From Tubulanus polymorphus (Eukaryota > Animalia > Nemertea), in NCBI RefSeq assembly GCF_964204645.1, contig NC_134027.1, positions 23,832,560-23,896,559 on the forward strand: DNA of 64,000 nucleotides, given 5' to 3'. Position numbers and translations under genes: made by a program. Within the stretch, counting starts at the first letter, position 1. Every line of letters begins with the position of its first letter. A model generated the notes under the pieces. It did no database searches. It saw only the letters and a program-made list of their open reading frames with translations, and was not told where the DNA came from. Positions 1-63,751 of the stretch are shown here, piece after piece.

Positions 1-122
1 GAGAATGAACCCGAAAGCGATAACGGCGCCTCAAATGTTCGGTTTGTTGGACGTTGCGACCAACGATTGGACGGACGGTATCTTCTCAACTCTGTGGAGA
101 CGAACGTTAAAAGCGAAGAAAG
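1..122 (+). CDS. DNAH5: Dynein HC exon (partial, AAA2)
   Basis: [40 protein letters not shown]; donor gttcgt. Confidence 0.9.
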
Positions 123-3100
123 GTTCGTGTTTCATTCGTGATATGATATGATAACTCTCAAATTCTCCATTCCTTTTCCTCTACAAAGATGTCTGCTTGT
201 GATAACCTTGGCATATTCATTGTTGCATTGACTGGAACTCACTTCATCGATGATAATGCATGAATGATGGAGCAGTCCCATGTGTTTTTTGGCACTTGAA
301 GAGTCTGAAATTTTGACAGATTATCAAATCAAAAAGATGTTAATGTTTTCATTGTCTTGATGAATATTGATGACTTTCTTAGACTGACAAGTCATAAACT
401 TATTTTCAATGCCAACCAGCCGTGAAATACGAATTTAGCTTTATAAGTTTTAATTGTATAAGAGTTTTGTACCGCGGCAGTCTCGATGCCATCAGGTTTG
501 AATCCCCGCCGGGGGAAGATGTAGCGTTGGGACTGTAAATATATCACCGAGTTGAGAATCTTCTGTAAAACATTTAAATATTGATACGTTCTTGTTTTTC
601 TCCAATCAGGTGAGCATATCTGGATTGTATTGGACGGGCCGGTCGACGCGATTTGGATCGAGAATTTGAACTCGGTTTTGGACGACACGAAGAAGTTGAC
701 GCTGGCCAACGGCGATCGTATTCCGATGGCGCCGAACTGTAAAATCATCTTCGAACCGCACAACATCGATAACGCGTCGCCCGCGACTGTATCCAGGAAC
801 GGTATGGTCTACATGAGCAGCTCGGGTCTCGACTGGAAACCTATTCTTCAGGTACAACCAATTTATCCATTCGATTCTTACGACAATTTCTAATCCTATG
901 ATGCTGGGAGAAAAATACTATTCCTAACGAAATCCGGGGCTGGTTCCATAGTTGAGACTTAAGGTGGCCCCCTAAGTGGGCTTAACTCTTAAGATTGGTC
1001 TTAAGTTGTTAGATTGGCTAAAAGACTGACATGGTCTTAGATGAATCTTTAAGTCTAAGTCATAGTTTGCCTGACGGAAGTCACCAGGATCGTCATTCGG
1101 AACAACCATGGCAGCATCTGGTAGGGTAGACTTTAAAAGTGACATTGACGATAATGATGAAAATGATCATGAATTTTGTGCAATTAATTGAAACTCTGAG
1201 AAAATGGAATCAAGAAACAATGGAAACCTTTAAGGGGTTAAGGTTAGATGCCGTAAGAACCAGGTTTGAAATCTTACTCCGAATTTCAGGGATGGTTGAA
1301 CAATCGTCAAGCGGGCGAGGCCGATATCATCATGGATCTATTCGAGTCGTCGTTCCCAGCGATCTACCGCTTCTGTACGCAAAACCTGATCTTCAAAATG
1401 GAGGTTCTCGAAGCGTTCGTCATCAGCCAGGCGTGCAACATCCTCGAAGGTTTGATTCCGTCGAAGGACGAACGAGAGGGCGCCATCAGTCGGCAACATT
1501 TCGCGCGGTTCTACGTGTTCACGGTGATGTGGAGTTTGGGCGCGTTTTTCGAATTGGACGACCGCGCGAAACTCGAAGAGTTCATACGAAAGAACGACGA
1601 GTTCACGCTAGACCTGCCCGACACGTCGAAGGTCACCGATTCGACGATGTTCGATTTCATGATCAACAACGACGGTCAGTACGCTTTCAAATTTTCAAGT
1701 AAACTCCAGCACTGCACATTGTTATGTTCTAACAGTCGAGAAAAGACTTGAAGAAAATACCAAGTGCTAAGATTTTAATGTTTGTTAACCCCAGTGCCGA
1801 CTAATTATCATCCCAATGTGCAGGGGCCAGTTGCACAGTCGTGACTTAAGGCAAAAAGTGGTCTTAAATCTTAAGACCGGTCTTAAGTTGTTAGATTGGC
1901 TATAGAACTAAGTTGGTCTTAGACTGGTCTTAAGTCTAAGCCATGACTATGCGACCGGCCCCTGGAGATAATTTGAAAACATTTCCATGCCAGTGTATTA
2001 AATAACCGGTACTAAAGTATGTGCACACCGCTGCGTGATGTGTCATTAGTTACTAATATTTCGCTATGTTTCGCTATGACTGGTCCTGCAATCTTCCAAT
2101 AGATATAAAAACTAATTACATGTGACATCAATACACCCCAATGCGATGTACTAGCTAAGTCCATTACCGATTCAGGAATACTGGGCCCCGTTTTATAGAC
2201 TGGTATTACCTTTAACCTGGGGGCTAACTCAATTCATTATCAATCGAGTTAGCTCCCGGGTTAAAGGTAATACAAGACTTTAAAAGCTAAAATCGGGCCC
2301 TGATGACTACTAGAATACATTGAAAAAGTCAAATAGTCATCTTCGTTTCGAAAAATGCTTTTACGATGTATATTTCCATTGTATTTTCTCTCGCGTGCAG
2401 GCGATTGGCAGCACTGGAATAATCTGGTGGAGGACTACATCTACCCGCCGGACAGCACGCCCGAATACGGATCGATTCTCGTGCCGAACGTCGACAACGT
2501 GCGAACGGATTTCCTCATCAATATCATCGCCAAACAAGAGAAAGCCGTTTTACTGATCGGCGAACAGGGCACGGCGAAAACGGTCATGATCAACGGTTAC
2601 ATGTCGAAATACAATCCCGAATATCACATGGGGCAGTCGTTGAACTTCTCGTCAGCTACGACGCCTCTCATGTTCCAGGTACGGTCATTCAGAGCTGCCA
2701 ACTGTTCCCGAGTTTTAAAATTTATTACTATTTCATAACAAGAAATTCGGATCTGATTTGTTAGATGCGTACAGAAATATGAAAGATGTTGCTGAGGGTC
2801 TTACTGTTGGATATTGATTAATTTCAACAGAAAGATGAAAGATGTTGCTGAGGGTCTTACTGTTGGATATTGATTAATTTCAACAGAAATATGAAAGATG
2901 TTGCTGAGGGTCTTACTGTTGGATATTGATTAATTTCAACAGAAATATGAAAGATGTTGCTGAGGGTCTTACTGTTGATTACTGATTAATTTCAACAGAA
3001 ATATGAAAGATGTTGCTGAGGGTCTTACTGTAGGATATTGATTAGTAATATCAAAAATTGAAAATGAACAATTTGGACTCTTCGGATTAAAACTTGTCTG

Positions 3101-6100
3101 TCTACTAGAAGTAGTTGATTTAATTGGAAATGAAGTAATTTTGATTATCCCTGTAGTCGAAGTGAATGTGTTTACAGCTTGGGAAAAAATTTACATTTCA
3201 GAGAACAATTGAAAGTTTCGTCGACAAGCGAATGGGCAGCACGTACGGTCCGCCTGCCGGTAAAAAGATGACCGTTTTCATTGACGACATCAACATGCCG
3301 ATTATTAACGAATGGGGCGATCAGATAGCCAATGAAATCGTGCGACAGTTGATGGAAATGAAAGGATTTTACAACCTTGAAAAACCGGGAGACTTCACGA
3401 ACATGGTCGATATTCAGGTATGATGTGATTCATATCGAATTCGTGAAATCCCTGAAGTCAAACTTTAAGATATCCAGCTTTTACAATACAGTAAATTTGG
3501 CTTAATGTTTGATGACATGAATAGGATTCTGGATTCTGAGAGCTCCCTCTCAGATACCTGGTGGATCTTGCCAGTCAAAAGAACATTGTCTTGGGGAACA
3601 GCCTGAGAGAGACCGTCTATTAATTAGATAAAATTCTTCTGGCAACAACTCTTAATAGATGTGGCCAGAAATCCTTTGTCACTAGAACAGGAATCTGGGT
3701 GAATTCCTGACACAGATTTGGTGTGCAAAACCCCTAGTTAGGAGCCTGGGTAATTACAAGAACCTTGGTTCTTGATGAGCTCAGTGAATGGGCTCTGAAG
3801 CGACTAACTTAAAAGAAAAACTGGATTCTTAGAGGGTAGAAAAAATGATCTCTTCAGAAACATAGGTTCTTGTTCACTACATCTAGTATTGGCTGCAGCT
3901 ACCTGTCTGCTACGTTAGCAGTACTTTAGACAGAGACATTGATTCGGTAAAACCTAAAAATGTCCGTTATTTTGCAGTTTATGGCAGCTATGATTCAACC
4001 TGGCGGAGGGCGAAATGACATACCGCAACGATTGAAGAGACAGTTTACGATATATAACTGTACGTTGCCGTCGAATACGTCCATCGATAAAGTATTCAGC
4101 GTTATCGGATCGGGTCATTACTGTCCGCAACGTGGATTCAGCGATGATGTCCGCGGCCTCGTCGACAAGCTCGTTCCGTTGACCAGGCGTTTGTGGCAAC
4201 TGACAAAGGTATTTATCGAAAATCGGACACCAACAATTCAGCGAGTGTATTGTTTCTAAAAAAGGGTGACCTCGATTCTGAAAAACTGGGAAAACTCAGG
4301 GAGTCCCATGGAAAACAGTGGGAATTGGTTTTTACTCTGGAAAACAACTTTACAATTCATTTCATATTGTAAATTTTGAAATTTTGAAATTGAATATAAA
4401 AGTATATTAGCGAAAAGTAGGAATGTTTATAGCTGGGCTTACCACTTGGGTCACTAAAAAAAACAACTCTCCCGTCCTTCTTAACGCCATTCATCAGAAC
4501 ACCGGGAAAGTTCCACTTTTACCGCGAAAACACAGGAAATACAAAATTCGATGTATCGTCTGGCTGTAAAATCTTGGCAGAATATTTCTGCCATCACAGA
4601 GATGGAAGAACCAGGGGCTGAAACTTTCAAATGCAGCAATCGAAAGAGAAAGTAGATAATTCCTCTTGATTAGAAATTAGCGCGATTAAACAGTTCCTAT
4701 GACCCAATATCAATTTAATTTGTATGTTTTCCTTTTCTCTTCGATACTTATAGATCAAAATGTTGCCGACGCCAGCGAAGTTTCATTACGTGTTCAACTT
4801 GCGGGATTTGTCGAGAATTTGGCAGGGAATGATCAACACGCAGTCCGATGTAATCGTCGACGAGAAAGTCTTACTCGGTCTGTGGAAACACGAATGTTGT
4901 CGCGTCATTGCCGACAGGTAAGTTGGAATCATCGAATACAATTTCGATTTTCTTGAAGTCATCGATTTTTTGACGTAACTGTGAAAAGAAATGTTGCTGT
5001 GCCTGGGATATTTATGGAAATCATATAAAAGTCTTTGATATTTAACTGGAAATTATAGATTATTTCTTTTTGAATTAAGATTGGTGTCATAATCGGTACA
5101 GAGTTTACAAGATCAAAATTTTGAGTTAGCCCTTTCCAGTCATATAAGTATACTATATCATATTTTACGTTCAAAGCTGCATTTTCAATTACCATGTATT
5201 GTTAGTTACTCATAGACTTTCCGCTATTCAATTGAAGAAAAAATCAACAATTACAAAGAAAAACTTCAGGAAGTTGTGACGTTTCAACTCAAATGAGCTG
5301 TTTTAAAAGCGATTTTACTCCCTTAGTGTTTCTTTCATAATTGCGGGTTTTAACTCAGAAATGAGTCTCAAATTCAATTTTGGAATTGACACTTGTCATT
5401 CAACATACATGATTCTTTTTCAGGAAGAATTTAAACCTGATAATTTCTTCTTGCTTCCAGATTTTGAAATGTGCTTCTCGATTTCATATGTTTAAACCCT
5501 TTCACTCCGTTACTCACAAGTGAACATGTCTACCCTGACTTATTGCAATGCCAGCGGTCACGGGGGGACCTGGGTAATGATCTTAGCTCCATAGCATGGG
5601 AAAGCCTCTGCAGTGTATATGAAAAAATGGCTGATTTTGTGTACAGAGGGGGAGGGGGGTTGAAAATTTCAAATCTTATGCGTACGTAATAAATGAATGA
5701 TCCCTTTCCGGAATATAGATCCGACTAACTGAAATCTGAAATTCGGTTTCACTTAGTTCGACTATAGTCGACTAACTCAGATAAACGGAGTTGGCCCTGT
5801 ATGTATTTTACCGGTTTTTGAAGACGTTACTTATATCGTTTATCGCCCGTAGATTTACGACGTTTGACGATTACGGCTGGTTTACGAAGACGATGTCGCG
5901 TATCGCCGTCGAGGATCTCGGCGAGCAGCACGCGCCGCATCTCGACACCGAGAATTTTTTTGTAGATTTCTTGAGGTAAAAAATCCGTCGCTGGAGCGAA
6001 CAGAAGAATCCCGTGCGGATGTTTTTGACGGCAAACATAACTAATAGATAACGCTTGAACACTTAAGCCGCGATCACACGAGCCCTTTTGGGTCGAGCAA

Positions 6101-9100
6101 AATTTGGTCATGCCAGATTGATAGAGCTGCGCCAACTTTTCTCCCTGGCGCAAAATAGATCAGTGCCAGTAGCTTAGGCTCGCGTGATTGCGGCTTCAAT
6201 CAGCAACATAATTTGACGACAGGTGTGCATTTTAATACTGTGCCTACTGTAAAACCGGCTTAATTCAGATGATTTGGGAGCGATAAATTCAATCCAGTTC
6301 GTGATGAGATATTCAGATGAAACATCGTATTTGATTTATATGTATGTATTGAAGGGATGGTAAATAGTATCTGGATTGAACTGATGCGGATTAAACCGGT
6401 TTGACTGTGGTCACATATTCAGCAGAACCTCGTTAAAACAAACTGTACTGTGAAATGGGAAATTGATGAGAAATATATGGCTGCCTCCATGAAATACCCC
6501 TATGACATCACCGCAAACATCGAAGTTTTGTTTAATGAGACAATTTTCTATGGATCATACCAGAAATCTTTGATGATGTCATAGGATTGGTTTTAGATTC
6601 TGCCATTTTTCTGGAATGGACGAGACTTCAATTTCTGGTTTGAGTAGAATTTGACAAGTTTCTATGTTCATTTTTGTTTTAATGAAGCTTTGCTGACATA
6701 GCAAAAAATACTTGACTGTTCGCAGAGCTTCTTTCCGTATAAACAATCAAATTTGAAATATTGATGACTTTATAGAAATATTTCAGAGTCTATAAAATGT
6801 TGTTCATCTGGAAAGGAAGTGTTAGTGATATTCAAGTGTTTTAAGAATGTTCACAAATTTTATTTCAGTCACGAACAAACAGTGAAAGTTTACTTTTTGC
6901 ACTATATTCACCTGATTCTGGTTTCACACTTGTGGGTTGGACTATGACTGCGGAGTGGAACTGAACCCACACCTGTGAAACCAGTGATCCGAGGTCAGTT
7001 GCGTACCAGAGGTGGTTAGATATAAACTAAGACCAACTTTCAAGGTCCAGTTGCGCAATGGTTACTGTCCAAAAATGCTATAAAACCTTAGGACTTGTCT
7101 CAGACTGTTCATAAGTTGTTCGATGGGCCATTCTAGCTAAAATGAGCGTAGACTGGTCTTAAGTTGTTAGATCGGCTATAGAACCAAAATGAGCTTAGAC
7201 TGGTCCTGAATCGAAGCCCTGTCTGTGCAGGCTCGTAAGTCAGATTTAAGTCCTATAGGTCAACATAGGTTAATTTTTATCGAATCTTAGTCTTAAGATT
7301 CTAATAAAACTCACAGCAACTATGGAACTGGATTCTAAGAAGTTTTGTTTTGCGAGACCCTGGTAAAAGAGCGACTGGTGTCGGATCTGAGTTCTTTTGC
7401 AGCCATGAATAACACAAATAACGCGTTTGTGGCTTTCATTGTCTAATAATTATGTAGCATGTTTTTGTACTAATTTAACGCAGTTTTGGGAGTGATTTCG
7501 TAATATTTTTTATCATCTAACGTTCGAATATTTTATAACACGATGCACAGGTTCACGAATTTCGACGATTTGCGTTGGTTCGATAAAACTATACAGCGTA
7601 TTGTCGCGGAGGACTTGTCCGAGGACTATATACCCGACATACAAGTAGATCAGTACTACTGCGATTTCTTAAGGTATCGGTATCTAACACTGTGCACTAA
7701 ACACTGATAAGGGTTTCCGCTTTGCTTTGATAATTTGATGAAATAATTTTGAAACTTTAAAACTATGAATATGTCAAAAAATGAATAAGATTAGAATTCC
7801 TGAAAATAAATTGATAATTTGTGTTTTGATTATTATCTTAAATTCAGAACTTTCAGGCTGCATTTTCTAAAGCACTATTTATTCAGAATAAGAATCTCCT
7901 AAGGGTTCCTTCATTCCTTCATTCCACTGAGCGCAACTCGGGGCATCATTAGCAGGTTCGAGGTTTCTTTTTCCATTTTATGGAGAGGACAGATCTAGAA
8001 ACTGCCACCACCAAGATTCGAGCCCATGAAGCCTGAAATTGACGAGATGACTGAATGCTACCACCAGGATTCAGACATGAACCCATGATAGTGAAATTCT
8101 GAGTTATCGCCGAGATTGTGGGATACTGCTTTAGAAAATGTAACTGATTCTCATAAACGGAAAGTTTTAACAATATGACTATTTTCTCGAACATTTCATA
8201 GAGATCCAGCGGAAGCTACTGGGGAAGAGCCAGACGATGCCGACTTCGATATGCCTAAAGTTTATGAACCTGTAAGTTGTAATACGATGTCGAAACATCA
8301 TTTATTTAATCTTGATTGAAGTTAGAGCTTCTTCCTGAGGTTATGTGTAGTATGAATTAGCTCAGCGGGCTGAATAGAGCACAATGGGTTAGGAGGCAAG
8401 ATGACTCGGTGCTGACTAATTGATACCCTAAAGTGCTGGAGATAATTTGAAAATGTTTGAAAGATTCCAGCCCAGTGCATTAAATAATGGGCATCCACTA
8501 TAATGTGTCCACACCGTGGTGCGGTGTATCATTAGTTACTTATATCTAACTATGTTTGTCAGGTGATGCCATCTTTTGTTAGAGATAAAAACCTGTACGA
8601 ATCACATCAATACACCGCAGTGCGGTGTACTAGCAAAGTCCATCACCGATTTATAAACCGTGTGTAATGAAACGGAACAAGGGCTCCTGGGGCCAGTTGC
8701 ATAGTCATGGCTTAGACTTCGGACCAGTCTAAGACCAACTTAGTTCTATAGTCAATCTTACAACTTAAGACCAGTCTTAACATTTAAGACCACTTTTTGA
8801 CCTAAGCCATGACTGTGCAACTGGCCCCTGATACCTTTGCCTTGTTTATCTATAAGACAAGCATATTTCCTTGCAAGGTGAACGCCTTACGACCAGAATC
8901 ACTAGACTCTGTGTAGGTTAGCGCCGCGACTTGTTGCGATGCTATTCTCTGCAGTATTATTCTCTATAATGTTGTACACCGATTACGTTACGTTTTTTCT
9001 TCAGATCACGACGTTCGAACAATTGCGCGAGCGTTTGATCATGTTCATGGGTCAGTACAACGAATCGATCCGCGGCAGTAAAATGGACCTCGTATTCTTC

Positions 9101-12100
9101 AGAGACGCGATGATCCACCTGGTGAAGATTTCGCGCGTCATACGCACGCCGCGCGGTAACGCGTTGCTCGTCGGCGTCGGCGGTTCCGGCAAACAGTCGC
9201 TGACGAAATTAGCTTCGTACATCGCCGGCTATCAAACGTTCCAGATTACGCTGACTAGGTACGTGCCCCCTGTGCCGATTTCGCGAAATTATGCTGGTGG
9301 CCACTGACCTGCAAAACCTAGAAAACTCAGGGAATCAGAAAAATCTAGAGAAAACTCAGGGAATTTGACAAATTTCACCAAAAACCTGGAAAGCTCAGGG
9401 AATTCGGATCGTGCTATTCACAATGTGTTGTTTCTTAATCAATATGTGATTCAATGAAAAATGAATGAAATTTAACATTTTAAACCTAGAAATTCCTCAG
9501 ATTCGATCTGGGAATTTTGCGTAATCACATGGAAAACTTAGCGAATTTGTAAATGGGTGTAACCGTCCTGTTAGGTTCATTCGTAAAATTTTCTTGAGAG
9601 CCAATTATTCGTATTTGATGATTTCATAATTTTGAATGATTTCTTTATTCCTACAAGCCGGTAAGATTCATTGTGAATGTTTCGTAGCTCTTTTCTTCCT
9701 GTTTGCCGTTTCATGTTTTTCTCCCTGATTTGGTTCCGCAGTCAACGAGACAATTGTCAGAGAATTAATGGCTAAATCTGGATATCGGTATCTTTGAATC
9801 GGTTCTAGAATTCGAATTAGCTAAGCAAAACTTTGGCTTAATTTCATGAAAAACATTCGACAAGCTTAAAACGGTTGAATCAATTGAAAAAATAAGTAAT
9901 CTAACTAAAAAAGATGTTTAGTCTGAAATATCTAAAAAAGTTTTAATCAAAATGGTCTCTGGTTTTGTCTTTTCACTGTGGAACCGGCCTGTCCGTATTT
10001 TACCTATTACATGAAATCGTGTTGGATTATGATGATTGAAATGTTCTGTGAAAATCTCTTTGCGGTCACATGTTTTTGCTGCAGTGTGAACTCCTTACAC
10101 TTGTTGAACTATCAGTAGTGTTGATTTTATTTCGTTCCCAAGGACTGATTCGATGATTATTCGACTCATGAAATCTTTTGACCATTGAGTCTAATCTGAA
10201 CTGATTACCAGATGCTATGAAACCGAGTCCAGGGCCAAATTCCACAATTGACTATACAGTAAAAATGAGTTCACCATCAATGTTACAAATTTAAGTCGGA
10301 CTTTTGGTACAGTCTCAATTGTGGCCCTTGAAACATTTTTGAATTGCAGTTCTTTCCATTGAGCAACATTGCACTGCTGCAGTCCATTGAAGTTTTGATT
10401 TTACGATTCAATTTCTCAATGTGACCACTATGGAGCTGGTTGCAGCCCGAGAACTGAACCTGGGTGGGATCCAACATTGTTCCTTTCCTCTCACGACGAA
10501 TGAATACTTTGAGCTAATAGCGTCGGATATTACGTGATGTTTTCTACAGGTCGTACAGCGTATCGAACTTGCTCGAAGACTTGAAGTTCTTGTACAGAAC
10601 GGCCGGACAACAAGGCAAAGGTATCACCTTCATATTCACCGATCAGGAAATCAAAGAAGAAAGTTTCTTGGAGTACATGAACAATGTTCTCTCGTCGGGT
10701 GTGGTAAGTACTGAGCTTAATTCATTTGTATATTATTAAGAGTTGTATTAAACAATGCCAGGGTAATTAATTGGGAACCCGGGGCCTATGGAACGACTTG
10801 GAAGATTCATCATTATCCATGGCAAGGAAAAGCTTTATCGAAATATAAAGCAATTTTGAAATGATGTAAAGTATAAATCTGAATTGAAATAAGTTAGTTT
10901 TTTCGACTATACACAAATTACAACCATGGAACTAGGACCTGCCTATAAACTGATAGCTCAAAATTTGGTTCTTTATGATCAGATGGCGTGCTGGTAAACT
11001 CAATCAAATTTGAATTGATTTTATATTAGCTTTCGTCTAGATTTCAAGTCTCGTGCATCCGAGATCAGGCTAATTGTTGAACATGACTAAACGAAACTTC
11101 ACTGATAAATGGCTGTATCTAAAGCTTCAAAAATTTTCCCCTTCAATTGTTATCAGCAACATAATTTCACGCTTCGAATATTTTTTCAATTCAAGGTGTC
11201 GAATTTATTCCAACGCGACGAAATCGATGAGATCAACGGCGAACTGATTCCGATCATGAAGAAAGAGTTCCCGCGACGTCCGCCGACCAACGAGAATCTG
11301 AACGAGTATTTCCTCAGTCGAACCCGTCAGAATCTTCACGTCGTCCTCTGTTTTTCGCCGGTACGTTTGAGAGAAATATTTGAGAGAAATATTTCAAACA
11401 TATTATTTAAGAGATATCTGGTTATGGCGATGGTGGTAGAACCGTGAAGGTTGAGATATCTTGTAGTAGCAATGGCGTTAGACCTAGAAGCACGAGGTAT
11501 CTCAATAGTGCTGGCGGTAGAACCAGAAATTTGAGATATTTCAATAGTTGCAATGGTGGTAGAACCAGAAATATGAGATATCTCAATAGTTGCAATGGTG
11601 GTAGAACCGTGAAGTTTGAGATATCTTGTAGTAGCAATGGTGTTAGACCTAGAAGCACGAGGTATCTCAGTAGTGCTGGCGGTGGAACCAGAAATATGAG
11701 ATATCTCAATAGTTGCAATGGTGGTAGAACCAGAAATATGAGATATCTCAATAGTTGCAATGGTGGTAGAACCGTGAAGTTTGAGATATCTTGTAGTAGC
11801 AATGGTGTTAGACCTAGAAGCACGAGGTATCTCAGTAGTGCTGGTGGTAGAACCAGAAATATGAGATATCTCAATTGTTGCAATGGTGGTAGAACCAGAA
11901 ATATGAGATATCTCAATAGTTGCAATGGTGGTAGAACCGTGAAGTTTGAGATATCTTGTAGTAGCAATGGTGTTAGACCTAGAAGCACGAGGTATCTCAG
12001 TAGTGCTGGTGGTAGAACCAGAAATATGAGATATCTCAATTGTTGCAATGGTGGTAGAACCAGAAATATGAGATATCTCAATAGTTGCAATGGTGGTAGA

Positions 12101-15100
12101 ACCGTGAAGTTTGAGATATCTTGTAGTAGCAGTGGTGTTAGACCTAGAAGCACGAGGTATCTCAGTAGTGCTGGTGGTAGAACCAGAAATATGAGATATC
12201 TCAATTGTTGCAATGGTGGTAGAACCAGAAATATGTGATATCTCAATAGTTGCAATGGTGGTAGAACCGTGAAGTTTGAGATATCTTGTATTTGTAATGG
12301 TGGTAGAACCAGAAATAAGAGATATCCCATAGTAGTAATGGTGTAAGACCTAGAAGCACGAGGTATCTCAGTAGTTTTGGTGGTAGAGCCAGAAATATGA
12401 GATATCTCTGACCAAGAAGTACAAGTTGTCTTTAGATATTTGGATTTCCGACCTTTTCTAACATTTTCTTTATTCCTGAGAACAGTGTAAATCACCTCAA
12501 TCGCTTTAATCACCTAAATCGCGGGCGTCAAATCGGAGCGCTCCGTAGTTTTCGGCAGTTGTTAGCACAACTGTGGAGTCCGAGAAACCAATATGGCATC
12601 TCATCCAAAAAGCGGCTCTTATTCAGGCCCAAACTATTAATATTTTGACCAAAAGGAAGTAAGTTTTTTGGCTAAAAGTTACTGACTTCTGTTCCCCAAA
12701 AATTTCTTTTTTTTTTGAAAATATTTTCCGACTTTTCCAATATGGGTCGTTTTCATCCCTGTAGCTCTAAAGGAGGTAGCACGATGCTAGAAATACAACT
12801 TTGAATCAAGAGCTGTGAAACTGCGTCCAGATTAGCGCTCGCTAACACCGCATTACGTTTCGTTTTACAGGTCGGCGAAAAGTTCCGAAATCGCTCACTG
12901 AAATTCCCGGGACTGATCTCCGGTTGCACGATGGATTGGTTCCAGCGTTGGCCGAAGGACGCGCTGATCGCCGTCGCCGATCACTTCCTGTCGACGTTCA
13001 ACATCGAGTGCACGTCTGAGGTGAAAACTCAGATCATACACTGTATGGGTATCGTACACGACGGCGTCGCTGAGAGCTGTACCGAATACTTCCAAAGGTA
13101 AAAACTTGCGACAAATCTAACTTTAAAACTAACAGTAAACCTCTCAGTAAATCTCTCTAAAATGAATGCCTTCAGGGCAGATCCAGGAGTTCACTAAGAG
13201 GAGCTCACATAATGAATTAGGACCCACGATCCCAAGACGAGAAGGTGGAGTCTGGGGATTTTTTTAATGCAAGATGCGTCTTAGAGACATCTTGAAGTCA
13301 TGATCCTAGAAAGACAACCATCCACTTTCAAGCGAAAACAACTGAAAATCAATCTTCAAAATCTTAGATAGTTATAAAGAACCAGACTGCAATGCAAAGG
13401 GGTGTTCATTAGGTGTATCATAACTTTTTGTCACAGCGTCACCTTGTGGTCACTCAAGTCATTCATTTCCCAAATTTCCTATAAATAGAGTCAATTAGTA
13501 CCGTACATACCGGTACATTATAAACCATTCCATGGTGTACAATGGTAATGAACTGGTCGATAATGTATGATATCACATGAAAACATATCGATTGTTAACT
13601 TTTGATCGGCCAGACACTGACACGTTGGCGCTGTTCACTGTAGGGGGTGAAATATTCAGAAAATAGTTACTGCTTTTTGCTGTTAAGAAGTGTTCATCGT
13701 ACTCTTACTTGAAAATGAACTGGCAAAGCTTTTGTTATGGGAGGTGTTTTATGTGGAGAGGTATTTGTTTAGGGAGGTTTTATTGCAAACTGTTATAAAT
13801 TGATCGTCAAAGTCAATTCACCAATATTAGGTTCATTGTCTATTTCGACCATTGCGCGACTTAACTTTTTAGCTTCCGATCTTCATCGTTTATTTGTTGA
13901 CGTTCATGAATATATGATATGTTTGTTTGCGTTTTCAGGTACCGTCGTCAAACTCATGTGACGCCGAAGTCGTACCTTTCTTTCATCAACGGTTATAAGT
14001 CTATCTATGCCAGCAAACTTTCCGAGATCGCTGAATTAGCTGAACGCATGAACACAGGTATGGAATTTTTGTTAATTCAAGGATCTAAAACGTTTTCTGC
14101 TGGCAACAAGTATACTCGTACTTTCAGTTCTGTCACCAGTGCCAGCCATGAATATATTCATAGTTGATTCTTCTATAGTTACACTACAGTTAGATATTAG
14201 ATTGGTTAGCAATGTGAACAAACTCTGCTTGATTCTCAGTGCTCATTGGTCGATTTTGATGAAAGGCTGACTTTCTAACAGCTCCAGTGCCAAGCTACGA
14301 ATATATTTATAATGTAAATCGGGGGCAGCACTGAAGTTGTTAAACTAGTTTATTTTCAATGAGCTTATTCCGCTTATTATCATTCTCAATATTCCTTCAG
14401 GTCTCGAGAAACTTGTGGAGGCCTCGCAATCGGTAGCCGAACTGAGCAAAGAACTCGCCGTCAAAGAGAAAGAACTCGCCGTCGCCAACCAGAAAGCCGA
14501 GGTCGTCCTGAAGGAAGTAACGGTCAAGGCGCAGGCCGCGGAGAAAGTGAAGAACCAAGTGCAAAAGGTCAAGGACAAAGCCCAAGCGATCGTCGATTCG
14601 ATCGAAGCCGACAAGTTGGTCGCCGAATCGAAGCTGGAGGAGGCGCGACCGGCGCTGGAGGAGGCGGAGAACGCGTTGAACACGATCAAACCGGCCGATA
14701 TATCGACCGTGCGTAAACTGGCGAAGCCGCCGCATCTCATTCAACGGATCATGGACGCCGTGTTGTTGCTGTTTCAACGCCGATTGGACCCGATCATGAA
14801 AGATCCCGAACGCGATTGCATGAAACCGTCGTGGAGCGAGTCGTTGAAGGTCGGTAGCCGATACGGGCATTGTTTTTTTTTTATCGTTCAGAAATCAATC
14901 CTTGTCCCTCCCAAATCGTTGAAAAAGAACTTTTGATTTTCGTCCTTGTTTTGAACATTCGTCATGGCAACTTATCTAAGATTCTGAAATGAACATTTCA
15001 ATGCCAGTCTCATGAAAGAGCTCTAACTAAAATTGGTGGATAAAGTTCATACTTTCAATTTAGTGACGACAATTAGAACTTAACAATCGAAACAGTTTTG

Positions 15101-18100
15101 AATTTAGAAAATCATTCTTGCTTTTGAAGTTCGTCGCATCAGGTCACTTTACCCTTATCCTGAAAGTGCTGGAGATAATTTGAAAACTTCCAGCAGTTAT
15201 ACCTTAGTACCAATAGTGCGTCTACACCGCGGCGCAGTGCATTGTTAGTTATTATTATTTCACTATGTTTGACAGGTGCTGCCATCTTTTAATAGAGATA
15301 AGAACTGAGAGAAAAGATAAATATTAACAATGCATCGCAATGCAGCATATTAGCAAAATCCTTTACCGATTTATACATCGCACTGTGGTGTAGATGCACT
15401 GAAAGGATTAATCAGGCCTCCAGTTCAAGTTGATTCTTACGTTAATCGGGGCAGTATAAATCATCCAGCTGAAAGCTTTTTACCGTCGGTGACCCAACGT
15501 TTAATAAAATCATTTCAGCTGATGGCCGGCTCCGGATTCTTGCAAAATCTAATGAACTTTGCGAAAGATTCGATCAACGACGAAACGGTCGAATTGCTCG
15601 CGCCGTACTTAGAAATGGAGGACTACACGCTGGAAATCGCGAAGAAAGTCTGCGGTAACGTCGCCGGTTTGTGCTCGTGGACGAAAGCAATGGCCGCGTT
15701 TTTCGCCATCAACAAAGAAGTTTTGCCGCTGAAGGTAGGGATCGTAATTTTAGATCCTGAAATAGTATTGCAGTGCCAAATTTCATTAGCTGGGTTTCCA
15801 CGGTACCAAAGAATCGGGACAAACTTTCGAATTTCGAAATTGTATTTCTTTGTTTGATAATTCATGTGGAAATTTTAAGGTTTTCCTTTAATCTGGGAAA
15901 TTTCTAGAAAATCGCACCATCCAGGGCTGGTTGCGTAGTCATGGCTTAGACTTATATCATATCTTTTACCATCAAAGAAGGCCGTAGGCCTATTTACAGA
16001 CAGGCTCTTAGTTTACATATTTAACGTCCTCTCTTACAACCAATCTAATACTGACTATACACAATCCAACGACTTAAGAACAGTCTCAAGAATTACGACC
16101 ACTTTTGGACATAAGTCATGAATGTGCAACTAGCCGATTCAAGAGTTAATTAAGATTGAAGACCGAAAAATCTGAAAATTTTGTTTATCAATGCGAATTG
16201 AGTGTTGTGTCTATTTGAGATATTGTTGAAATATTTGAGCTGAATATTGAAAACGAAATTGATTCGAAACGATATATACCTTTTCCAGGCCAATTTGACC
16301 GTTCAACAAGCGCGATTGAACGCCGCTATGGCCGATTTGAACGCCGCTCAAGCTCAACTCGACGCCAAACAGGCCGAGTTGGACGTCGTGCAGGCGCAGT
16401 ACGACGCGGCGATGGCCGAGAAACAGCGACTGATGGAAGACGCGGACACGTGTCGGCGTAAGATGACGGCCGCGACGGCGCTGATCAACGGTCTCGGCGG
16501 AGAGAAAGAGCGCTGGACCGAACAGAGTAAAGAGTTCAAAGCTCAAATCGGCAGGTTAGTTCATTCGGCTCTGCGAGCATTCAGACGGTCAGGAGGGTGG
16601 CCGCTTACCTGAAAATCAAGGAAAAGTCAGGAAGATTTCTTTTCTTGAAAAAGTCGCAAAGGAAAATATCAGGGAAAATATGTAAGATTGCTAGATCGCG
16701 CGTAAAATCATATCAAATAAGTGGCCATCTGGGTCTGGCTTTTGATTTAGTTTGCCCAGTTTACGGGGAAGGTTGATCAATTTTGATTTAATCTTTGAGT
16801 ACTCATTGGATTCTGACCCGGTTCCATAGATGCCCATTGATAATATATCCCTTCTTCTTTTCTTTACCCGTAAACCTAGGTGGATAAAAAAAAAAATCAT
16901 TTCAGATAATGATAGACTCATTTCGTCTGTAGTCATATTTTAACCAGACAACTATCTAACCACTGCATGCATCTTTGATAAGCTGCTGAAATACTAATTG
17001 TTCGAATAATGTTCGATATAGGTTGGTCGGCGATGTTTTGATGGCTACGGCTTTCCTGTCGTATTCCGGGCCGTTCAATCAAGATTTCCGTATTCTGTTG
17101 AACAAAAACTGGCAGAAAGAATTGAAAAATCGTAAGATTCCGTACACGGCCAGCTTGAACGTGGTTAACATGCTGACGGACCCGACGACGGTAAGTTCAT
17201 CAATTAATGCCAGTCAACGATGCCACGTAAAAGCATGGTTTTTGAAAGTGTGCTGATAAAAGTCTGGTGGCCCAAATTCTGTATTCAAACTTCAAAATTC
17301 TGCTTTAGATCGGCGAGTGGAACCTACAAGGATTGCCGAACGACGAGTTGTCCATTCAAAACGGTATCATCGTCACGAAGGCTGCGCGGTATCCTCTACT
17401 GATCGATCCGCAAGGTCAAGGCAAAATCTGGATCAAAAATAGGGAAGCGGATAATGAGCTACAGGTAAGAGTGAGCTTACCGCGCTTCCGGAAGTTTTCC
17501 AGTTTCGAATCGGATATGTTATAAGCGCCATCAAGATTTCCTAATCTCGATAAGAGAAACCTACGATATCTATTTCAAAAACCGTCTTGTTATTTTCTTA
17601 CGTTTCGGTGGAATCCTTCCACCAATCTTCAGGATCCAGTTCCACAGGTCCGTGTTCCCATAAACTCTTGAGTTAAAATTAGTTCGTTTTCAATGAGTTA
17701 ATTCTGAATCAAATCTTAACTCAGAACTGTGGAACTGAATCCAGAGTTTATTTTAAATAAACCTCTGTACTAAACTTACCTTTGCTTGAAGCTGAAATGA
17801 GATTAACTGCAAAAACTCAAAAAAGAATGCTTGCGCGTAAAGCTGATTCTCTTGGATTCTGATTCAATTCCAGATCTCTTCGTTGAATCACAAATATTTC
17901 CGAGTACACCTGGAAGATTCTCTGTCGCTCGGACGGCCGTTACTGATTGAGGACGTCGGCGAAGAACTCGACCCGGCTTTGGACAATGTTCTCGAGAAAA
18001 ACTTCATCAAAAGCGGATCGACATACAAGGTACGTGGTACAACATACTGAACTAGGATCCAGTTCTGCAGTTGAGTTTGACTCTAGAGTTGAAATTAGTT

Positions 18101-21100
18101 CATATAGAGTAATTCAACTCTTGAGAGTCAAATCTTACCTCATATGTGGAACCGGGTTCATTATGTTACTGAGCCGCCAGGATTCGGCTGCACGGTCGCG
18201 GGTTAAGAATACATGTATGTTGAACTCTAGGAGCTGAAATGAGTTCAATTTGAGAGATTTTTACCCGGAACCCAGAAATCCTAGTGCGCATGGCGCATGA
18301 TAAACGCTTAACAAAAACAAGAAACCCTGCTCAACGAATATGACATGTTTATTTCGTTGTATCACACTTTCTTGTTTCGTATTAACGCACCCAGTTGCAA
18401 AACAAGTGGAAAGCTTTAGCGAGTAAACTACGGACTCGATTCATTGGTGAAGGAATCAAACCGAAATGCATTGAGAGGAAAATGTCTTTCTTGTTTTAAT
18501 GTTTTTCTTATTGTGTACGCTACGCTTTAGAGACTTAAGTCACTTGTTGAGATTAAAGTGGTTTTTCAACTGATGGTTTATACGCGTAGTTAGTTCCGTA
18601 TTGAATTGATAGATGGCTTTGCTGAGTCGGTATCGCGGCATAGCTTAATTCATCGAAAAACGCTGTATGTAGATCCCTCCAATTGTTAATATATTGTAAA
18701 TCGTGTCTGTATGGATTGATGATAAATTTGCTATATTTTATCGAGAAAAGGTCTCCGTTGTTTTGTAAATTGTGTGTATATTCTCTAGTCTCCCTTCATA
18801 TACCATGGATTCGAAATGGTTAGAGTGTAAATGAAATCCTGAAGTCCAGATATTCAGAATGTTCTCTTTCTATAATCGTTCAGGTAAAAGTCGGCGACAA
18901 AGAAGTCGACGTGATGACCGGGTTCATATTGTATATAACGACGAAACTGCCGAACCCGGTTTACACTCCGGAGATCTCGGCTCGTACGTCGATCATCGAT
19001 TTCACCGTGACGATGAAAGGTTTAGAAGATCAGTTGCTGGGACGCGTCATTCTCACTGAGAAAGCTGTAAGTATCCACGCCCCCTCCCCGCGAAATGTAA
19101 CACCCGAAGACGCCCCATCGGTCGCGAAAATCCCGGGCCCGGTTTCATGGACTGAGTGTCAAAGTCATCCCCAGGGGTAAATCCTGAATCTGTGGGTGAC
19201 AACCACCATAGTAACGACGAGAAACCATGGTCCAGTTCCACAGTTCTGAGTTAGGATTTGACTCAGAGTTAACTCATCGAAAGTGAACTATAACTCAAAC
19301 TCACAACTGTGGAACTGGATCCATGGTTACTTATAACTGACGAATTTCAAAATATTCTCAGCAACTGTTTTTTTTCCGCATCTATGAGACCCAGCCCGGG
19401 GCTTTGAAAAATGAAATAGAAGATCAAACATTATATATAGCCATGGGATTACGCGAGCGTTTTGACCCTGGCAAAGTTGGCCCGTACCAGATTAGGCCAG
19501 GCGAACCGTTCACACTGGTGCCTGAGGGGTCCATGCCTGTTTGACAAGATGGCACGACCAAAATTTCCGATCAAATTTCCGATTAGCGCTGAATTGCTTA
19601 AGTGTTGGTCAAATCAGTCGGCAAATTTTCAGCTTTCGTTTGTGATTTAGTTTTGACTGAAACAATGATTTTGCTTCAGGAACTCGAGAGCGAACGGGTA
19701 AAACTGATGGAAGACGTTACTTCGAACAAGAAAAAGATGAAGGAATTAGAGGATAATCTGCTGTATAGATTGACAAGTACTCAGGTAGGCGGTCGTTCGA
19801 TCGAGCGCGAGGAATCCTCACTCGCCACAGTAGCATGCATTCCTGGTATGCCGTTATTTCCGAGTATTTCACGCGTCAAGCGACGTTTCGTCATTTTCAG
19901 GGTTCGTTGGTCGACGACGAAGATCTGATTAACGTTTTGAACGTGACGAAAGCGACGGCCGTCGACGTCACGCAGAAGCTGCAGACGGCCGCTGAAACGG
20001 AAATCAAAATCAACTCGGCGCGTGAAGAATTCCGTCCTGTGGCGACTCGTGGCAGTATCCTGTATTTCTTGATCACTGAGATGAGCATGGTGAATCCGAT
20101 GTATCAGACTTCTCTACGACAATTCCTCGGTCTGTTCGACATCTCAATGGCCAGGTAAGATTAATAATATACAATAATAGTAAATTGTCACTTATATAGC
20201 TCAAGGCTCCTAATAAAAGTTCTAATGCGCTCCTCTAGAAACTATCCGTGATAAAACGATGATTACAAATCCCATAATAGATGAATTGATCTAAAAAGTT
20301 CATTTAACCCTTTCGGTGCTGACTAATTAATACCCTAAAGTGCGGGAGATAATTTGAATATTCCAGTCCAGTTCATCAAATAAACAGGCATCAGCTATAA
20401 TGAGTCTACAACCCGGCGCGGTGTATCGTTAATTACTTTTATCTTTACGGTGTTTGACAGTTGCTGCCATCTTTCTTTACAAATTACATCAATACACCGC
20501 AGTGCCGTGTATTAGCAAAGTCAATCACCGATTTATACACCGCACTGCAGTGTAGACGCACTGAAAGGGTTAAAATATACTCATCACGGATTTTTGCTCA
20601 TCAGGCTAGTCTAGTTCCATTGTAATTTCACTATAAGAGTCGCTCGTTAGTCGTATGCAGCTGACAGTCTAGCTTTTTTTCTAGTAAAAGATCTTTTTTA
20701 CGACGATGACCGGTTTTCGAAAAACGTGTTCGACTTCTTTTCAGATCGATCAAATCGCCGATTACTCAAAAGCGAATCACTAACATCATCGAATACATGA
20801 CGTTCGAAGTGTTCAAATACGGCGTACGCGGCCTCTACGAGGAGGATAAAATGACCTTCACGATGTTGCTGGCCTTGAAGATCGACATCCAATGCGGAAA
20901 GATCCGACATGAGGAATTTATGACATTCGTTAAAGGTAAAAAAAAAACAGCGTGCCCATTCCTCGAAATTAAATCATGATTAGTTATTAAAAAAAATTCA
21001 TCATTCTCAATGACTAAAATAATTCTGAAATTAATCGGGTCCTTGGTATTGGATTTAAATTACTGGTAGTGAGTAGACTAAGTTAGCAACCAGTATCGTC

Positions 21101-24100
21101 ATCTTTTTTGAAGAGAATGTTTTTGACCTTCGTGGTCATAGATACCTTACGCAGGAAAAAAAACTCCCGTTATTTGAACAACTTTTCTCCCTAGACGTAT
21201 TTGGCATGTGACAAATATCAAAATCAATACTAAAAGAAAAAACAATGTTTGTTCGCAATTTGATGAATTATGACAGGCTTTTTTTGCAGGCTGTGTTTGT
21301 TGAAGCACTTGGAATTGTTCAATGTGCATTATATGTTATTAGATCATTTTTTTTCGAACGATCAATTTTTGTCTCTTCGGCAGGTGGTGCCTCGTTGGAT
21401 TTGAACGTCGTACAACCGAAGCCGTGTAAATGGATCCTCGACATGAATTGGCTGAATTTAGTCGAACTGAGCAACTTGCATCAGTTCTCCGGCATTCTTG
21501 ACCAGGTACCGACAATAGGAAAATCAGAATCGATCGTACAATTTTTATCTCTTTATCTACTGGTCAGGCGTCTTCTTTAGTGTTTAAGATTCTTTTCAAG
21601 TTCAAGTATGCCCCTAAATCGTAATACCGGTCATAACTAAGATTGCCAATAGAACCAAATTGAGCAAAGACCAGGCTCTAAGTTGTTAGATCGACTCTGA
21701 TAATGATCTCTGACCGGTCTTCATTGACTATAGAATCAAAATGGGTTTGGACTGGTCTTAAGCTGCTGCGGTAGATCGGTTTAACAGCCGACACGGGCTT
21801 AGACCAGTCTAATGTTTTTAGCTTTAAATCTGCAACACTGGATTTTCTAGACTTCAATTCATTATTTGGTCAAAATGGTCCAGTAAGTCTCGGATGTAAT
21901 TCTACTGCAAGCAAGCTATAAGGGTTATCATTTTACTTGGAACTTGAGTTTTAAATCGTGCGATATTTTTTCAGGTCGCCAGAAACGAAAAACAATGGAA
22001 GCAATGGTTCGACAAGGAGGCTCCGGAAGACGAGGTTATTCCGGACGGTTACAACAACTCGTTGGATACGTTCCGACGATTGTTGCTCGTGCGATCGTGG
22101 TGTCCCGATCGTACGTTGTCGATGGCGCGAAAATACGTGTCCGATTCGCTCGGCGAAAAGTACGGCGAAGGCGTCATCCTCGATCTGGAGAAAATGTGGG
22201 AGGAAAGCACGAGTCGTCAGCCGCTGGTCGGTCTACTGTCGATGGGTTCCGATCCGACGAATAACATCGAGCTACTCGCGAAAAAACTGAAAATCGGTAC
22301 GTCTGCCCAGCCTTGCCTGGAAATTGATTGACCCGTGACAAAGTCAAATTGAAACAACACAATTGTGGAACTGGATTCAGAGTCAAAGTAAACTCACACA
22401 ACCGTGGAACTGGATCCAGAGTCAGATTAATCCCATGGAACTGCATTCGTAGTCTTAATTAAACCCACAAAACCTGTGGAACTGGATCCAGAGTCAAATA
22501 AGACCCACACAACTGTGGAACTAGACCCAGAGTCAAATTAATCCCACAAAACTGCATTCAGGGTCTTATCAAACCCACAAAACTGGTCAAATGTGACCAC
22601 AGTCCCTGGATCCAGAGTAATTAAACCAACACAACTATGGAACTGGATCCAGAGTAATTAAACCCACACAACTATGGAACTGGATCCAGACTAATTAAAC
22701 CCACACAACTATGGAACTGGATCCAGAGCAATTAAACCCACACAACTATGGAACTGGATCCAGAGCAATTAAACCCACTCAACTATGGAACTGGTTCCAC
22801 AGTCAAATAAAATTTACAAACTGGTTTCATAAACAAATTCAATTTAAGAACTCGCAGAATGTTTAGGTCATGAGCACATAGGGGATTAAAGGATGATTAA
22901 TCACTAGGTATTGTTGGTATTAAAATCATGGATTTGAATATGATGAGCCTGTTATTGATGTGTTTTGGGAAATCCGATTTGCAGTCTGTTGACAAACCCA
23001 ACCATTAAAATGATTCATTACAATTAGTAAAAGCCTGTTTACATAATTCTACTTATACATAACGGATTTGCGACTGAACATTTGAGACTATTTAGATTAT
23101 GATATCTAATTTGTTTCAATAAACTCAATATATCACGTATATATATATATATAATCCACACTCCCAGAGTATGAACAATTCTGGTTTTGTCTTTTTTAGA
23201 ATGTCGGGCGATATCTATGGGTCAAGGCCAAGAGGTGCACGCTCGGCGACTGCTGACGCAAGCCTCGCAGAACGGAGGCTGGGTATTGTTGCAGAATTGT
23301 CACTTGTGTCTCAACTACATACTCGAAGTGATGGATTTCGTCATCGAAACCGAAACGATTCACGACGGTTTCCGACTGTGGGTGACCACCGAAGTACACC
23401 CGAAGTTCCCCATTAGTTTCTTACAGGTACTTACCGTTACTTGAAATGCATAGACGATGAAAGTCACGCCAAAATTCACCGCATCGAGTACTGGGGACTA
23501 GTTGCACTGTGTTGGCTTGGATTTAAGACCAGTTTGATGCCCATCTTTATAGTTATTTAACCAATTTAAGATCCGTCTTAAATTCAAATTATATTTTTGG
23601 ACTTAAGTTATGAATGCGCAACTGGGCCCTAGACGACTATGAACAACGCTACCCATCCAAGACGACTGCCATAGTTGAAATAAGTGGAAAATGTTATTTC
23701 AGCACTTCAAATCGGACATCAAACTCACTTTTTCTGCGGCTAATTTTTGCAAAACAAACCATGGAAAATGTGTAACCTTAAAATGAAAACCAAGGCTACG
23801 CTTTTTTTATGTATTTCACTTTCTGCAGTTAGCCCTTGATTATACCCCTCCTCGGGACCAATGGCTTTTTTCGCGGATATTCCTCGTTATTGGGAATTGA
23901 AAATTTTGGCCGTAATTGTTGCATTATTAACAACTCAATACGTAATGATTCGTGGTTGCGCGGGATGTTTTGGATTTCTCGGTTTAAATCTAGATATCAG
24001 CGACATTACACGGAAGATCTGAATAATCAAATCATTGTTGTGTATGTTGATGTCCTTATGAGAGTGCAACTTAACCCGAACATCTAAAAAAAAGTTTGTC

Positions 24101-30544: not shown

Positions 30545-32819
30545 TCTGTGTATCGTTCATTTGTTACTTCGTATACTTCATATACAGCAGACCTTCCTAT
30601 TTATGTTAAGTTTTCCACTCCTTTTCGAAGCTTTATCAACTTAATCAAAATTGTCAAAAAATTGACAATAAGGCACTAAAAATATCTGCGGCCGGTCGCT
30701 CGAAATTACGCGTTACTATGCTTATCTGTTTATGCTTGGTCTCTTTAACTGCCGGGTATCTTTAACCAACTTTTGAGGAACTGCAGCTACTGGCCTGTAT
30801 TTCTTCCATAGTCTATGCGATGAAATGAGATCTTTTTATACCAATGGATATTTTTCGATCAGGATCGTTTGAAATCAATCTCGTTTACGCGAAATTCAGA
30901 TCACGGCAAAATCATCTTTTTATCTCTAACATGAGCTGAATGGACCGTAAATTTGGACCTGTTTAGTACTGAATAGACCGTAAATTTGGATTCAGCTGTA
31001 CGAATCTAATCAGTTATGAGTGAAATCTCCTGATTGAAAAAGAAACTAATTAGATTAGATACATGGTATGTACTATTCAATCTAACTCAGAATTCCCGAA
31101 CTGGACCATGGTCTGTACATGTAACACATTACATACACATCTCAGTCAAAATGATGTTTTACATCGGGACGCGCTGTCATTTTAATTACAATATTCATGA
31201 AGTCACTTTGTTGTTCCATGATAGCTGTGATAATATTTAGATTGCGAAAAACATGCTTTTGTGTTTACCAACGTTTGCCAACTCTGGGCCCCTTACACAC
31301 TTATCTATTTGTATTCTATCCAAACAAATAATTTTTTCGTCTGCTTTTCCGAACTTATTTGCACAGTAAAAAGTAATTATATCAGGTCTTTCGCCGCCGA
31401 AAGCCAAATATTTGTTATTAGTAATTTTTTCATGTCTATTAATGAATTAATGCAGGTATCAGTGTCTGGACCTCACACCCCTTTACATCATGCAAACTTT
31501 CAGAGCTGCCAACTGTTCCTGATGTTCGGTATTTGTTGCTATTTCGTAATGAGAAATTTGATGCGCTCAGAAATAAGTCATCATCCACGCTTCACGTGTT
31601 AAGAACTTTACCCAAGACCAGTTTTGATTGAAAATAAACTAATTGACCTAAAAACACTTGATGCACGTTGAAAAAAGACATCACCCACGCTTCACGTGTG
31701 TTCAGAACTTCCCCTCGAGATGTTTTGAATTGGAAATGAACTTTTTGAACCATCAACACCAGATGTACTTTAAAAAAATGATCAATTTTAATCGAAAATT
31801 GACTACAAACATAATTACTAATATTATAACAGTCATCACCTATTTTATGAACACATCTCTACTTACTACAGGGGTGAATGTCTTAAGAGGGGTGTGAGGT
31901 TCCAGGCTGCTGTGTATTCTTACCTGAATCATACTCATAGTTCCAGTCGGTTCAGTTTTTTTTGTTTACTTCACATACATGTACATATTCAACTAATACA
32001 TTTTCGATTCCGTCCAGGTCTGCGCGAAATTGTTATTTTTTTGTCAGACTATATTGTTTATATAAGAAACGTGTTTTTGCAGATGATATAATATTGTAGA
32101 TTTTTCATTCATTATTTGCTGAAAATGTTCCGTCCGCTCTGGAGAGCCACTGATCATGCGATACTGTTGATTACATATACAATGTATGTTCAGTTTTCAA
32201 TTAATTCGTATTTGTCAAAGCCTAGCTCGTTTCTGTGATAACAGTTGTACAATTTAAACAAGAGATATCCGGATAAACTGTATGATCATCATATCACTTT
32301 CCAGTTGTTAGTTTTTCTGGTAATGTTCTGGGTGCCTATGCAGATGAGGAACCACGAGGCGGGAGAAAGTGGTTGAAATGTGAAAAGAGTCCTCGTAGTT
32401 TGATTCCATATATCTATATAAGCCTACCATTTAGTGAATCAAAAGTTTATTGCTTGGAATGCCCTCAGATGCAAGGAAAAGGACAAAACATCATATGCCG
32501 TGAAAATGCTGTAATCGATGCGAGGTCACTTGGAGCTACGAGCAATCATGATTGAGATGATTGCTTGTAGCAATCATGGTTGAGATGATTGCTCGTAGCT
32601 TGGAGCTATTTGAATATTCATCCAGTTCATGAGGATTGAAATCATTATCTTCGTAGTGACTGGATTTAAGATCAAAATTAAGATCCAGACTAAGAGGTTT
32701 GATGATGAATGATGGATACCTATGTGCACTGATTGGAGCTCTGGAAGTGCAATAAGTCGCTAGATCCTTGTAGCATGGACGTATAAACTAGTTTATGTGT
32801 GTGAATGCTTATAGTAAGA

Positions 32820-35800: not shown

Positions 35801-35941
35801 TCAGATTGGGTGCAATAGGTCTATCGAGTCATCCTACAGTCTTATAGAACAGTGATTCCTCTTTAGCTCAGTGGGGGAGCTCAGATTGGGTGCAATGTCT
35901 CCATCAGTCATCCTACAGTCTTATAGAACAGTGATTCCTCT
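32820..35941. repeat. Tandem satellite, 80-bp monomer, about 39 copies
   Basis: Monomer GATTCCTCTTTAGCTCAGTGGGAGAGCTCAGATTGGGTGCAATAGGTCTATCGAGTCATCCTACAGTCTTATAGAACAGT repeated head-to-tail, with degenerate flanking monomers. Confidence 0.97.
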
Positions 35942-36112
35942 TACCGGGGCTCTAAACCGGGTTCACAAGGATCTATTAGCCATCCTAAATGCTATGGTAT
36001 AAGTAATACCTCTTAAGTTCGGCAAACTCAGAAGTAACTGCTATTACATATTTCGAAACAAATAATACGAATAACCACGACGTAACAGAGAAATAATTAT
36101 TGCTATACCAAT

Positions 36113-42395: not shown

Positions 42396-63751
<21,356 letters not shown>

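Follow-up and report, generated by a model that had tools for sequence, protein, structure and literature searches.

The paired exons and their host gene

The window analyzed here is a 64,000-nucleotide (nt) stretch of Tubulanus polymorphus DNA (contig NC_134027.1, positions 23,832,560 to 23,896,559 of the forward strand). Positions 1..30544, read on the + strand, hold the 3′ half of a gene for a DNAH5-type (DHC3B) outer-arm gamma dynein heavy chain, the 5′ half lying beyond the window. The part in the window has 32 exons, counting one member of a pair of alternative exons, A (5853-5975, + strand) and B (7551-7673, + strand). To judge by the gene models of related animals, A and B are likely spliced one at a time, which would give two motor forms, with the choice probably made by cell type to suit different motile cilia.

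Both exons are 123 nt long, in phase 2-2 and free of stops. Exon A follows TAG, begins with A and ends in AG before the donor GTAAAA; exon B follows CAG, begins with G and ends in AG before GTATCG. The constitutive exon upstream (4754-4917, + strand) encodes AAA3 lid and ends in phase 2, and the constitutive exon downstream (8202-8271, + strand) starts in phase 2 and encodes the acidic loop preceding AAA4. The A-B intron (5976-7550, + strand) is 1575 nt long, carries inverted-repeat and high-copy repeat insertions, and has a 56-nt AG-free zone before B. The 40 whole codons of each exon align without gaps, with 19/40 residues identical. A is the more conservative copy; B is the faster-evolving one, with an acidic residue at position 11 and Cys for Val at position 37. 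The net charges of the two copies, -6 and -7, fail to separate A from B, and third-position GC content (GC3; 0.56 in B, 0.67 in A) does not differ significantly (p=0.10). The first-pass annotation of this DNA, made from the letters alone, had the exon coordinates, length, phase, AG/GT sites, open frames and flanks at 4917 and 8202 exactly right, and its hand count of peptide identities was reproduced.

The window, read on both strands, has 61 stop-free AG..GT candidates of 123 nt in the same phase; scored against A (BLOSUM62), B reaches 114 and the runner-up -8. When all 32 modelled exons were searched against the window, exon 8 was the sole one found duplicated, B being recovered at E=4e-11 and the next off-target match at E=0.022; no third copy and no further duplicated exon appeared in that search. 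Both peptides align, weakly, to human DNAH5 (8j07) at about 2833-2876 (E 0.03 and 0.008). Similar length, conserved splice sites and a common frame, the features by which Pillmann et al. (2011) recognize mutually exclusive exons born of tandem duplication, are present here and likewise at three loci in other animals (L004, L011, L018). In addition, the homologous peptides stand for one structural element, which is a single unit in single-copy homologues. The proportion of synonymous sites that differ between A and B (pS) is 0.90, which is saturated, and that of nonsynonymous sites (pN) is 0.35. It follows that the copies arose long ago and that purifying selection has acted on both reading frames. 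A dN/dS value for exon B, proposed earlier as a check, is not expressible as a number because dS is saturated.

An assembly or haplotype artefact is rejected, as the copies are 44% different in DNA, their flanks are unrelated, and the pair recurs in other animals. Contigs of sequencing run X1, which is possibly the source sample, contain both exons with zero differences; this identity is not counted as selection, because the other X1 differences are clustered and the flanks are quiet too. The three sequencing runs used behave as DNA contigs spanning introns and are uninformative on expression.

By sequence, the host gene belongs among the lophotrochozoan genes for DNAH5-type (DHC3B) gamma heavy chains of the outer arm. 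In the nomenclature of Kollmar (2016, PMC5100056), human DNAH5 is DHC3B and DNAH8 is DHC3A, and DHC3 is described there as having split twice at the start of Metazoa. The spliced model, compared with Lineus longissimus DNAH5-like X1, has 2336 codons, no internal stop and a stop at 30544, with 1907/2339 aligned positions identical. It is colinear with Lineus X1, whose Pfam domains are complete, and the motor domain is thus intact to the C-terminus. Lineus and bivalves provide its best matches. In a FastTree of the motor region with the exchanged segment masked, built on a reference set without named vertebrate DNAH8, annelid or brachiopod sequences, the window gene falls among spiralians (0.984), in a clade with vertebrate DNAH5 and the amphioxus and ambulacrarian orthologues (1.0). 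A second gamma paralogue forms a separate clade in the same tree, with members from Lineus, molluscs, rotifers and flatworms.

Within the motor ring, the exon had been placed where the AAA3 small domain ends, and both Pfam and a structural model agree. The Pfam AAA_lid_1 domain (the AAA3 lid) extends over the first 26 residues of the exon, and AAA4 starts about 50 residues past it. In an AlphaFold2 model of a rotifer homologue, the segment folds into helices of 19 and 6 residues, then a loop and a strand of two residues (exon positions 36-37), after which comes the acidic loop. The model was built from a 41-row alignment and has a mean predicted local distance difference test score (pLDDT) of 71.9, with 82-96 in the segment; a structure search with it gave human DNAH5 as the top match. 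As modelled, then, these 41 codons supply the final helix of the AAA3 lid, plus a short helix and a beta-bridge residue where the AAA3-AAA4 linker begins.

How widespread and how old the pair is

Two surveys bear on how widely the pair occurs and how it is used, one covering the top 80 among 424 related metagenome sequences, the other up to 15 members of each protein cluster; isoform sets of Dreissena, Ostrea, Liolophura, Bradybaena and Plakobranchus lie outside the survey. Two intact 123-nt copies with GT/AG borders were found at 6 of the 80 metagenome loci, representing three distinct animals (L004, L006 and L008 in one; L011; L018 and L021 in the third). L034, where the second match is partial (11 residues) and lies in another paralogue, is not counted as a pair. 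Seven of 273 segment-bearing proteins are non-RefSeq gene models that join the copies (Macrostomum, Biomphalaria, two from Didymodactylos and three from Rotaria), and because such models contain both copies, they establish that the pair exists in these four genera. Altogether, it is found in molluscs, a nemertean, a flatworm and bdelloid rotifers, plus the animals of L004 and L011.

The evidence for one-copy use comes from RefSeq, whose X-numbered isoforms are as a rule grounded in RNA-seq junctions. All 36 segment-bearing RefSeq models (12 from Mytilus, 9 from Lineus, 15 from oysters) carry one copy or the other: 21 are A-type, 15 are B-type, and none has both. Models of both types are present in eight species of mussels, oysters and Lineus, and in M. 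californianus (X1/X2), M. galloprovincialis (X1/X2) and Lineus (X1/X3) two isoforms differ in the exchanged segment alone. By analogy with these relatives, splicing of the same kind is likely in the window species. Outside Spiralia, a single version per model was found in 14/14 amphioxus, 10/10 echinoderm and 13/13 coral models, an absence of the pair that is weakly shown since these are gene models, not genome scans. The second Lineus gamma paralogue likewise has a single version in 3/3 models. The earlier statement that DNAH5/8 proteins have one copy of the segment thus stands for the surveyed models of vertebrates, amphioxus, echinoderms and corals; the pair itself is spread across Spiralia and is not special to this genome.

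By sequence comparison, A and B are orthologous to the mollusc and nemertean copies. Pairing window A and B with the two copies of another animal in matched rather than crossed order gains 51 in Biomphalaria, where the order is known, 55 in Lineus, 35 in oyster, 32 in mussel, 16 in L004 and 7 in Macrostomum. An approximately unbiased (AU) test (40 columns, 23 sequences) rejects a separate duplication per species (p=0.007) and one per phylum (p=0.019), as well as an exchange of the window's two copies (p=0.016); a single origin, a single origin with reversed rotifer order, and a separate rotifer origin are left unrejected. At position 11, the first copy has Thr or Val and the second Asp in the four non-rotifer pairs of known order (window, L004, Macrostomum, Biomphalaria), and rotifers are mostly reversed. 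Position 37, which is not a labelling criterion, has Val in 10/10 A-type and 13/13 outgroup segments and another residue in 11/13 B-type segments. Positions 11 and 37 correspond to D2844 and V2872 of human DNAH5. Mean identity within classes is 20.6/40 for A-A and 15.7/40 for B-B, B being the faster-evolving class, and the C-terminal half of the segment varies freely among species. On a shorter time scale, L008 and L004 differ at 0/246 exon bases and at 31/1287 flanking intron bases (Poisson p=0.003; p=0.057 for L006). The comparisons point to a duplication older than the split of molluscs, nemerteans and the window animal, probably in an early spiralian. The initial proposal of an old duplication kept by selection, with one copy used at a time, is borne out by the AU test and by the relatives' RefSeq isoforms that differ here alone.

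Several loci show the pair in altered states. Some bdelloid-type genes (L002:696-980, L003, L013) have lost copy 1 together with its introns, and their upstream exon continues without a break into copy 2, a structure to be expected if the gene had recombined with a spliced message containing copy 2. The contig names of L002, without the pair, and L018, with it, begin alike, so both states may occur in one genome or sample. In L014:1203-1312, copy 1 is frameshifted and 110 nt long (a 13-nt deletion), and the other copy is intact; against L018, this broken copy has pS 0.60 and pN 0.17, so that its remainder still looks constrained, as in a recent decay or an assembly error. The first copy of L011 (10378-10500) has two near-invariant Phe residues replaced and an end that resembles the B class; the order may be reversed there. 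A pseudoscorpion DNAH5 model (P0123) has an internal duplication of about 790 residues, with the segment twice, far apart, and is likely an assembly or annotation artefact. The RefSeq isoforms of Mytilus, Lineus, oyster and amphioxus (P0364-P0414) show further variation in the same gene. In molluscs and Lineus the N-terminus (the first 40-50 residues) has alternative forms, and a cassette of 14-22 residues lies near residue 115-150; amphioxus isoforms have alternative N-termini too.

Choice between the copies

How a cell would take one copy and leave the other is approached here by elimination. Nonsense-mediated decay cannot enforce exclusion, because all four splice paths (either copy alone, both joined, both skipped) are in frame and without stops. 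Incompatibility of U2 and U12 splice sites is rejected as well: the donors are GTAAAA and GTATCG in the window and unrelated GT donors at four other loci, none of which fits the U12 consensus. Steric exclusion is rejected for the window gene, whose intron has 1575 nt and a 56-nt AG-free zone; it is possible in a rotifer gene with a 100-nt intron and an 80-nt AG-free zone. Thirty tests for duplexes between flank pairs at three loci gave nothing beyond z=-1.5 relative to shuffled sequences, and a search for splicing-factor motifs (ACTAAY, TGCATG, YGCY, YCAY, TGTG and others) found nothing common to all four loci.

The splice sites of the pair are weak. The donor of exon A outranks 4/30 and its acceptor 1/30 of the constitutive sites, and the donor and acceptor of exon B each outrank 3/30, which puts all four in the bottom seventh of the gene's sites. 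In 4/4 intact pairs, the second copy is preceded by a longer AG-free zone than the first (56/27, 61/44, 63/32, 80/21); in the broken L014 this order is reversed by one base. We suggest that the four weak sites would compete, and that trans-acting splicing factors of the cell type would settle the outcome. By elimination, weak-site competition set in this way appears to be the most likely mechanism.

An 80-nt satellite of 39 copies (94% matches) occupies window positions 32808-35942, just downstream of the dynein gene. A 165-nt intronic tandem repeat, which yields long spurious open reading frames, and a dispersed 37-39-nt minisatellite family occur at 11430-12408, 22342-22811, 25924-26952 and 45110-46102.

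Possible use of the two forms and known systems

Published structures suggest what the exchanged segment may touch. In other outer-arm chains, the linker contacts the AAA3 extension and the grooves of the AAA3 small domain (Rao et al., 10.1101/2020.12.08.415687), and in situ without ATP all linkers lie over AAA3/AAA4 (Zimmermann et al., PMC10267688). The segment is not named in the available parts of Kubo et al. (10.1101/2020.11.30.404319) and Walton et al. (PMC7817835). The exon swap would tune the AAA3-lid/AAA3-extension surface, near the place where dynein linkers dock after the power stroke. Its effect would fall on the kinetics of the beat or on contacts of the arm, not on the ATP sites. 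What the swap may tune is linker docking or the contacts between arms. In the window species, the two forms would probably serve different cell types. Our fuller proposal is tentative and slightly more apt to be wrong than right: a choice of exon that goes back beyond the origin of the spiralian phyla, by which one gene gives two gamma motors, unlike in the AAA3 lid and the surface where the linker docks and assigned to different axonemes, for example those of locomotory or feeding cilia and those of sperm or nephridial cilia. If it is true, axonemes would be specialized by exon choice instead of by paralogue. Of the uses considered, a division between types of somatic cilia is the most probable, though at less than even odds, ahead of sperm versus soma; mixed or developmental use is half as probable as the first, and little functional difference is the least probable.

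A number of observations weigh against one or another part of this account. One Batillaria model omits both copies, and the seven non-RefSeq models that join them could mirror real transcripts; since all four paths are in frame, double inclusion is possible. As to age, matched-minus-crossed pairing gives -2, +31 and -8 for three rotifer pairs and -4 for L011, so that these pairs are reversed or unresolved and there may have been more than one duplication. The unconstrained 40-column tree has no clean A and B clades. In the case of single-copy, mussel, oyster and Lineus models, it was position 11 that decided the A or B label, which makes that position a circular marker for them. Finally, the AAA3-extension contact of Rao et al. 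(10.1101/2020.12.08.415687) concerns chains other than the DNAH5 orthologue.

A special case of the preferred reading would place one copy in the sperm flagellum motor and the other in somatic cilia. The fly gene kl-3 serves in sperm. As kl-3 is the Drosophila DHC3B orthologue (Kollmar 2016 supplement, PMC5100056), a DHC3B paralogue can serve sperm in protostomes; mammals, for their part, exchange DNAH5 for DNAH8 in sperm (PMC11779644). At bdelloid-type loci, moreover, copy 1 is always the one lost (L002 and L003, which are one, L013, L023) or frameshifted (L014), never copy 2. Yet bdelloids are described as asexual (PMC8494291; 10.1101/226720), and five genes of these animals (L018, two of Didymodactylos, and those of two Rotaria species) keep copy 1 intact, and between bdelloid genes copy 1 is identical at 21-36/40 positions and copy 2 at 23-38/40, which weakens sperm-only use. 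Spiralians also own another gamma paralogue, and with three paralogues dating to early Metazoa, one would be available for a role in sperm. We consider a sperm-versus-soma switch unlikely, and these same points (early-metazoan gamma paralogues, a second spiralian paralogue, bdelloids with both copies) weaken the original suggestion that the exons replace the DNAH5/DNAH8 split of cilia and sperm flagella.

Inclusion of both exons together, routinely or optionally, as a tandem insertion in the motor ring would agree with the open joined path and with the seven joined models. It is very improbable, however, given the 36 RefSeq models without a joined case and the single helix-loop unit that all single-copy homologues show within a packed domain; the Rotaria cluster that holds joined models also contains copy-1-only and copy-2-only ones, and in bdelloid genes without copy 1 the upstream exon runs straight into copy 2. 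To an equally slight degree, one copy, most likely B, might be a silent relic in the window species: B belongs to the more divergent class, its GC3 is the lower (not significantly so), and a copy has been lost elsewhere (L014). Against this, exact length, an open frame and both splice sites have outlasted saturated synonymous divergence, and window B has the B-class residues at positions 11 and 37. Somewhat less improbable, though still remote, is that the exons are mutually exclusive but nearly equivalent in function, each retained since it gets some use, as the similar core residues and net charges and the freely varying C-terminal half would allow. Class-specific residues are nevertheless retained across phyla, and near-neutral duplicates would be expected to have been lost more often.

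Mutually exclusive exons are a known kind of arrangement, and the isoforms are already modelled in RefSeq; it is the conservation across phyla of an exon switch in an axonemal motor that appears to have gone unremarked so far. A literature search, which covered few subscription journals, found no description of this switch, in line with the initial impression that it was undescribed, and the accessible text of two oyster transcriptome papers (PMC6611504, PMC11270918) does not mention it. Kollmar (2016, PMC5100056) notes that for some dynein genes the motor domain is spliced in alternative forms, which the text available does not list; therefore, his curated database may hold this one. The RefSeq entries named "dynein axonemal heavy chain 5-like" contain the orthologous pair as automatic isoform models (Mytilus XP_052062309.1/XP_052062310.1 and XP_076112875.1/XP_076112876.1, Lineus XP_064640331.1/XP_064640333.1, and oysters). 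They are database models, however, and no paper was found that notices, dates or interprets the switch. Annotation also stands to be corrected, as several public models join or omit both copies.

The nearest published relative is SmDHC1 of Schistosoma mansoni (Pillmann et al. 2011, PMC3228551), a dynein heavy chain gene with two homologous exons of equal length and split codons at both ends, in which exclusivity was argued from alignment. SmDHC1 is a cytoplasmic dynein-1 rather than an axonemal outer-arm chain, and the published account, as far as its text was available, neither places the pair within the protein nor shows cross-phylum conservation. Arthropod muscle myosin heavy chain, as summarized in PMC3228551, is alike in that tandem-duplicated exons swap a piece of the motor domain, fine-tuning mechanochemistry per tissue. 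There, though, the motor runs on actin, the clusters are many and the function has been tested, whereas the dynein case has one two-exon cluster in a ciliary microtubule motor and a predicted function. In mammals, DNAH5 of epithelial cilia and DNAH8 of sperm (PMC11779644) likewise give an animal two versions of the outer-arm gamma motor, and it is to such paralogue swaps that differences between cilia types are usually ascribed. These are whole-gene paralogues from an early-metazoan split (PMC5100056), in contrast to a splice swap of 41 residues. Conserved in molluscs, nemerteans, flatworms and rotifers, with the protein otherwise identical, the swap offers a natural experiment on which surface of the axonemal dynein ring tunes beating.

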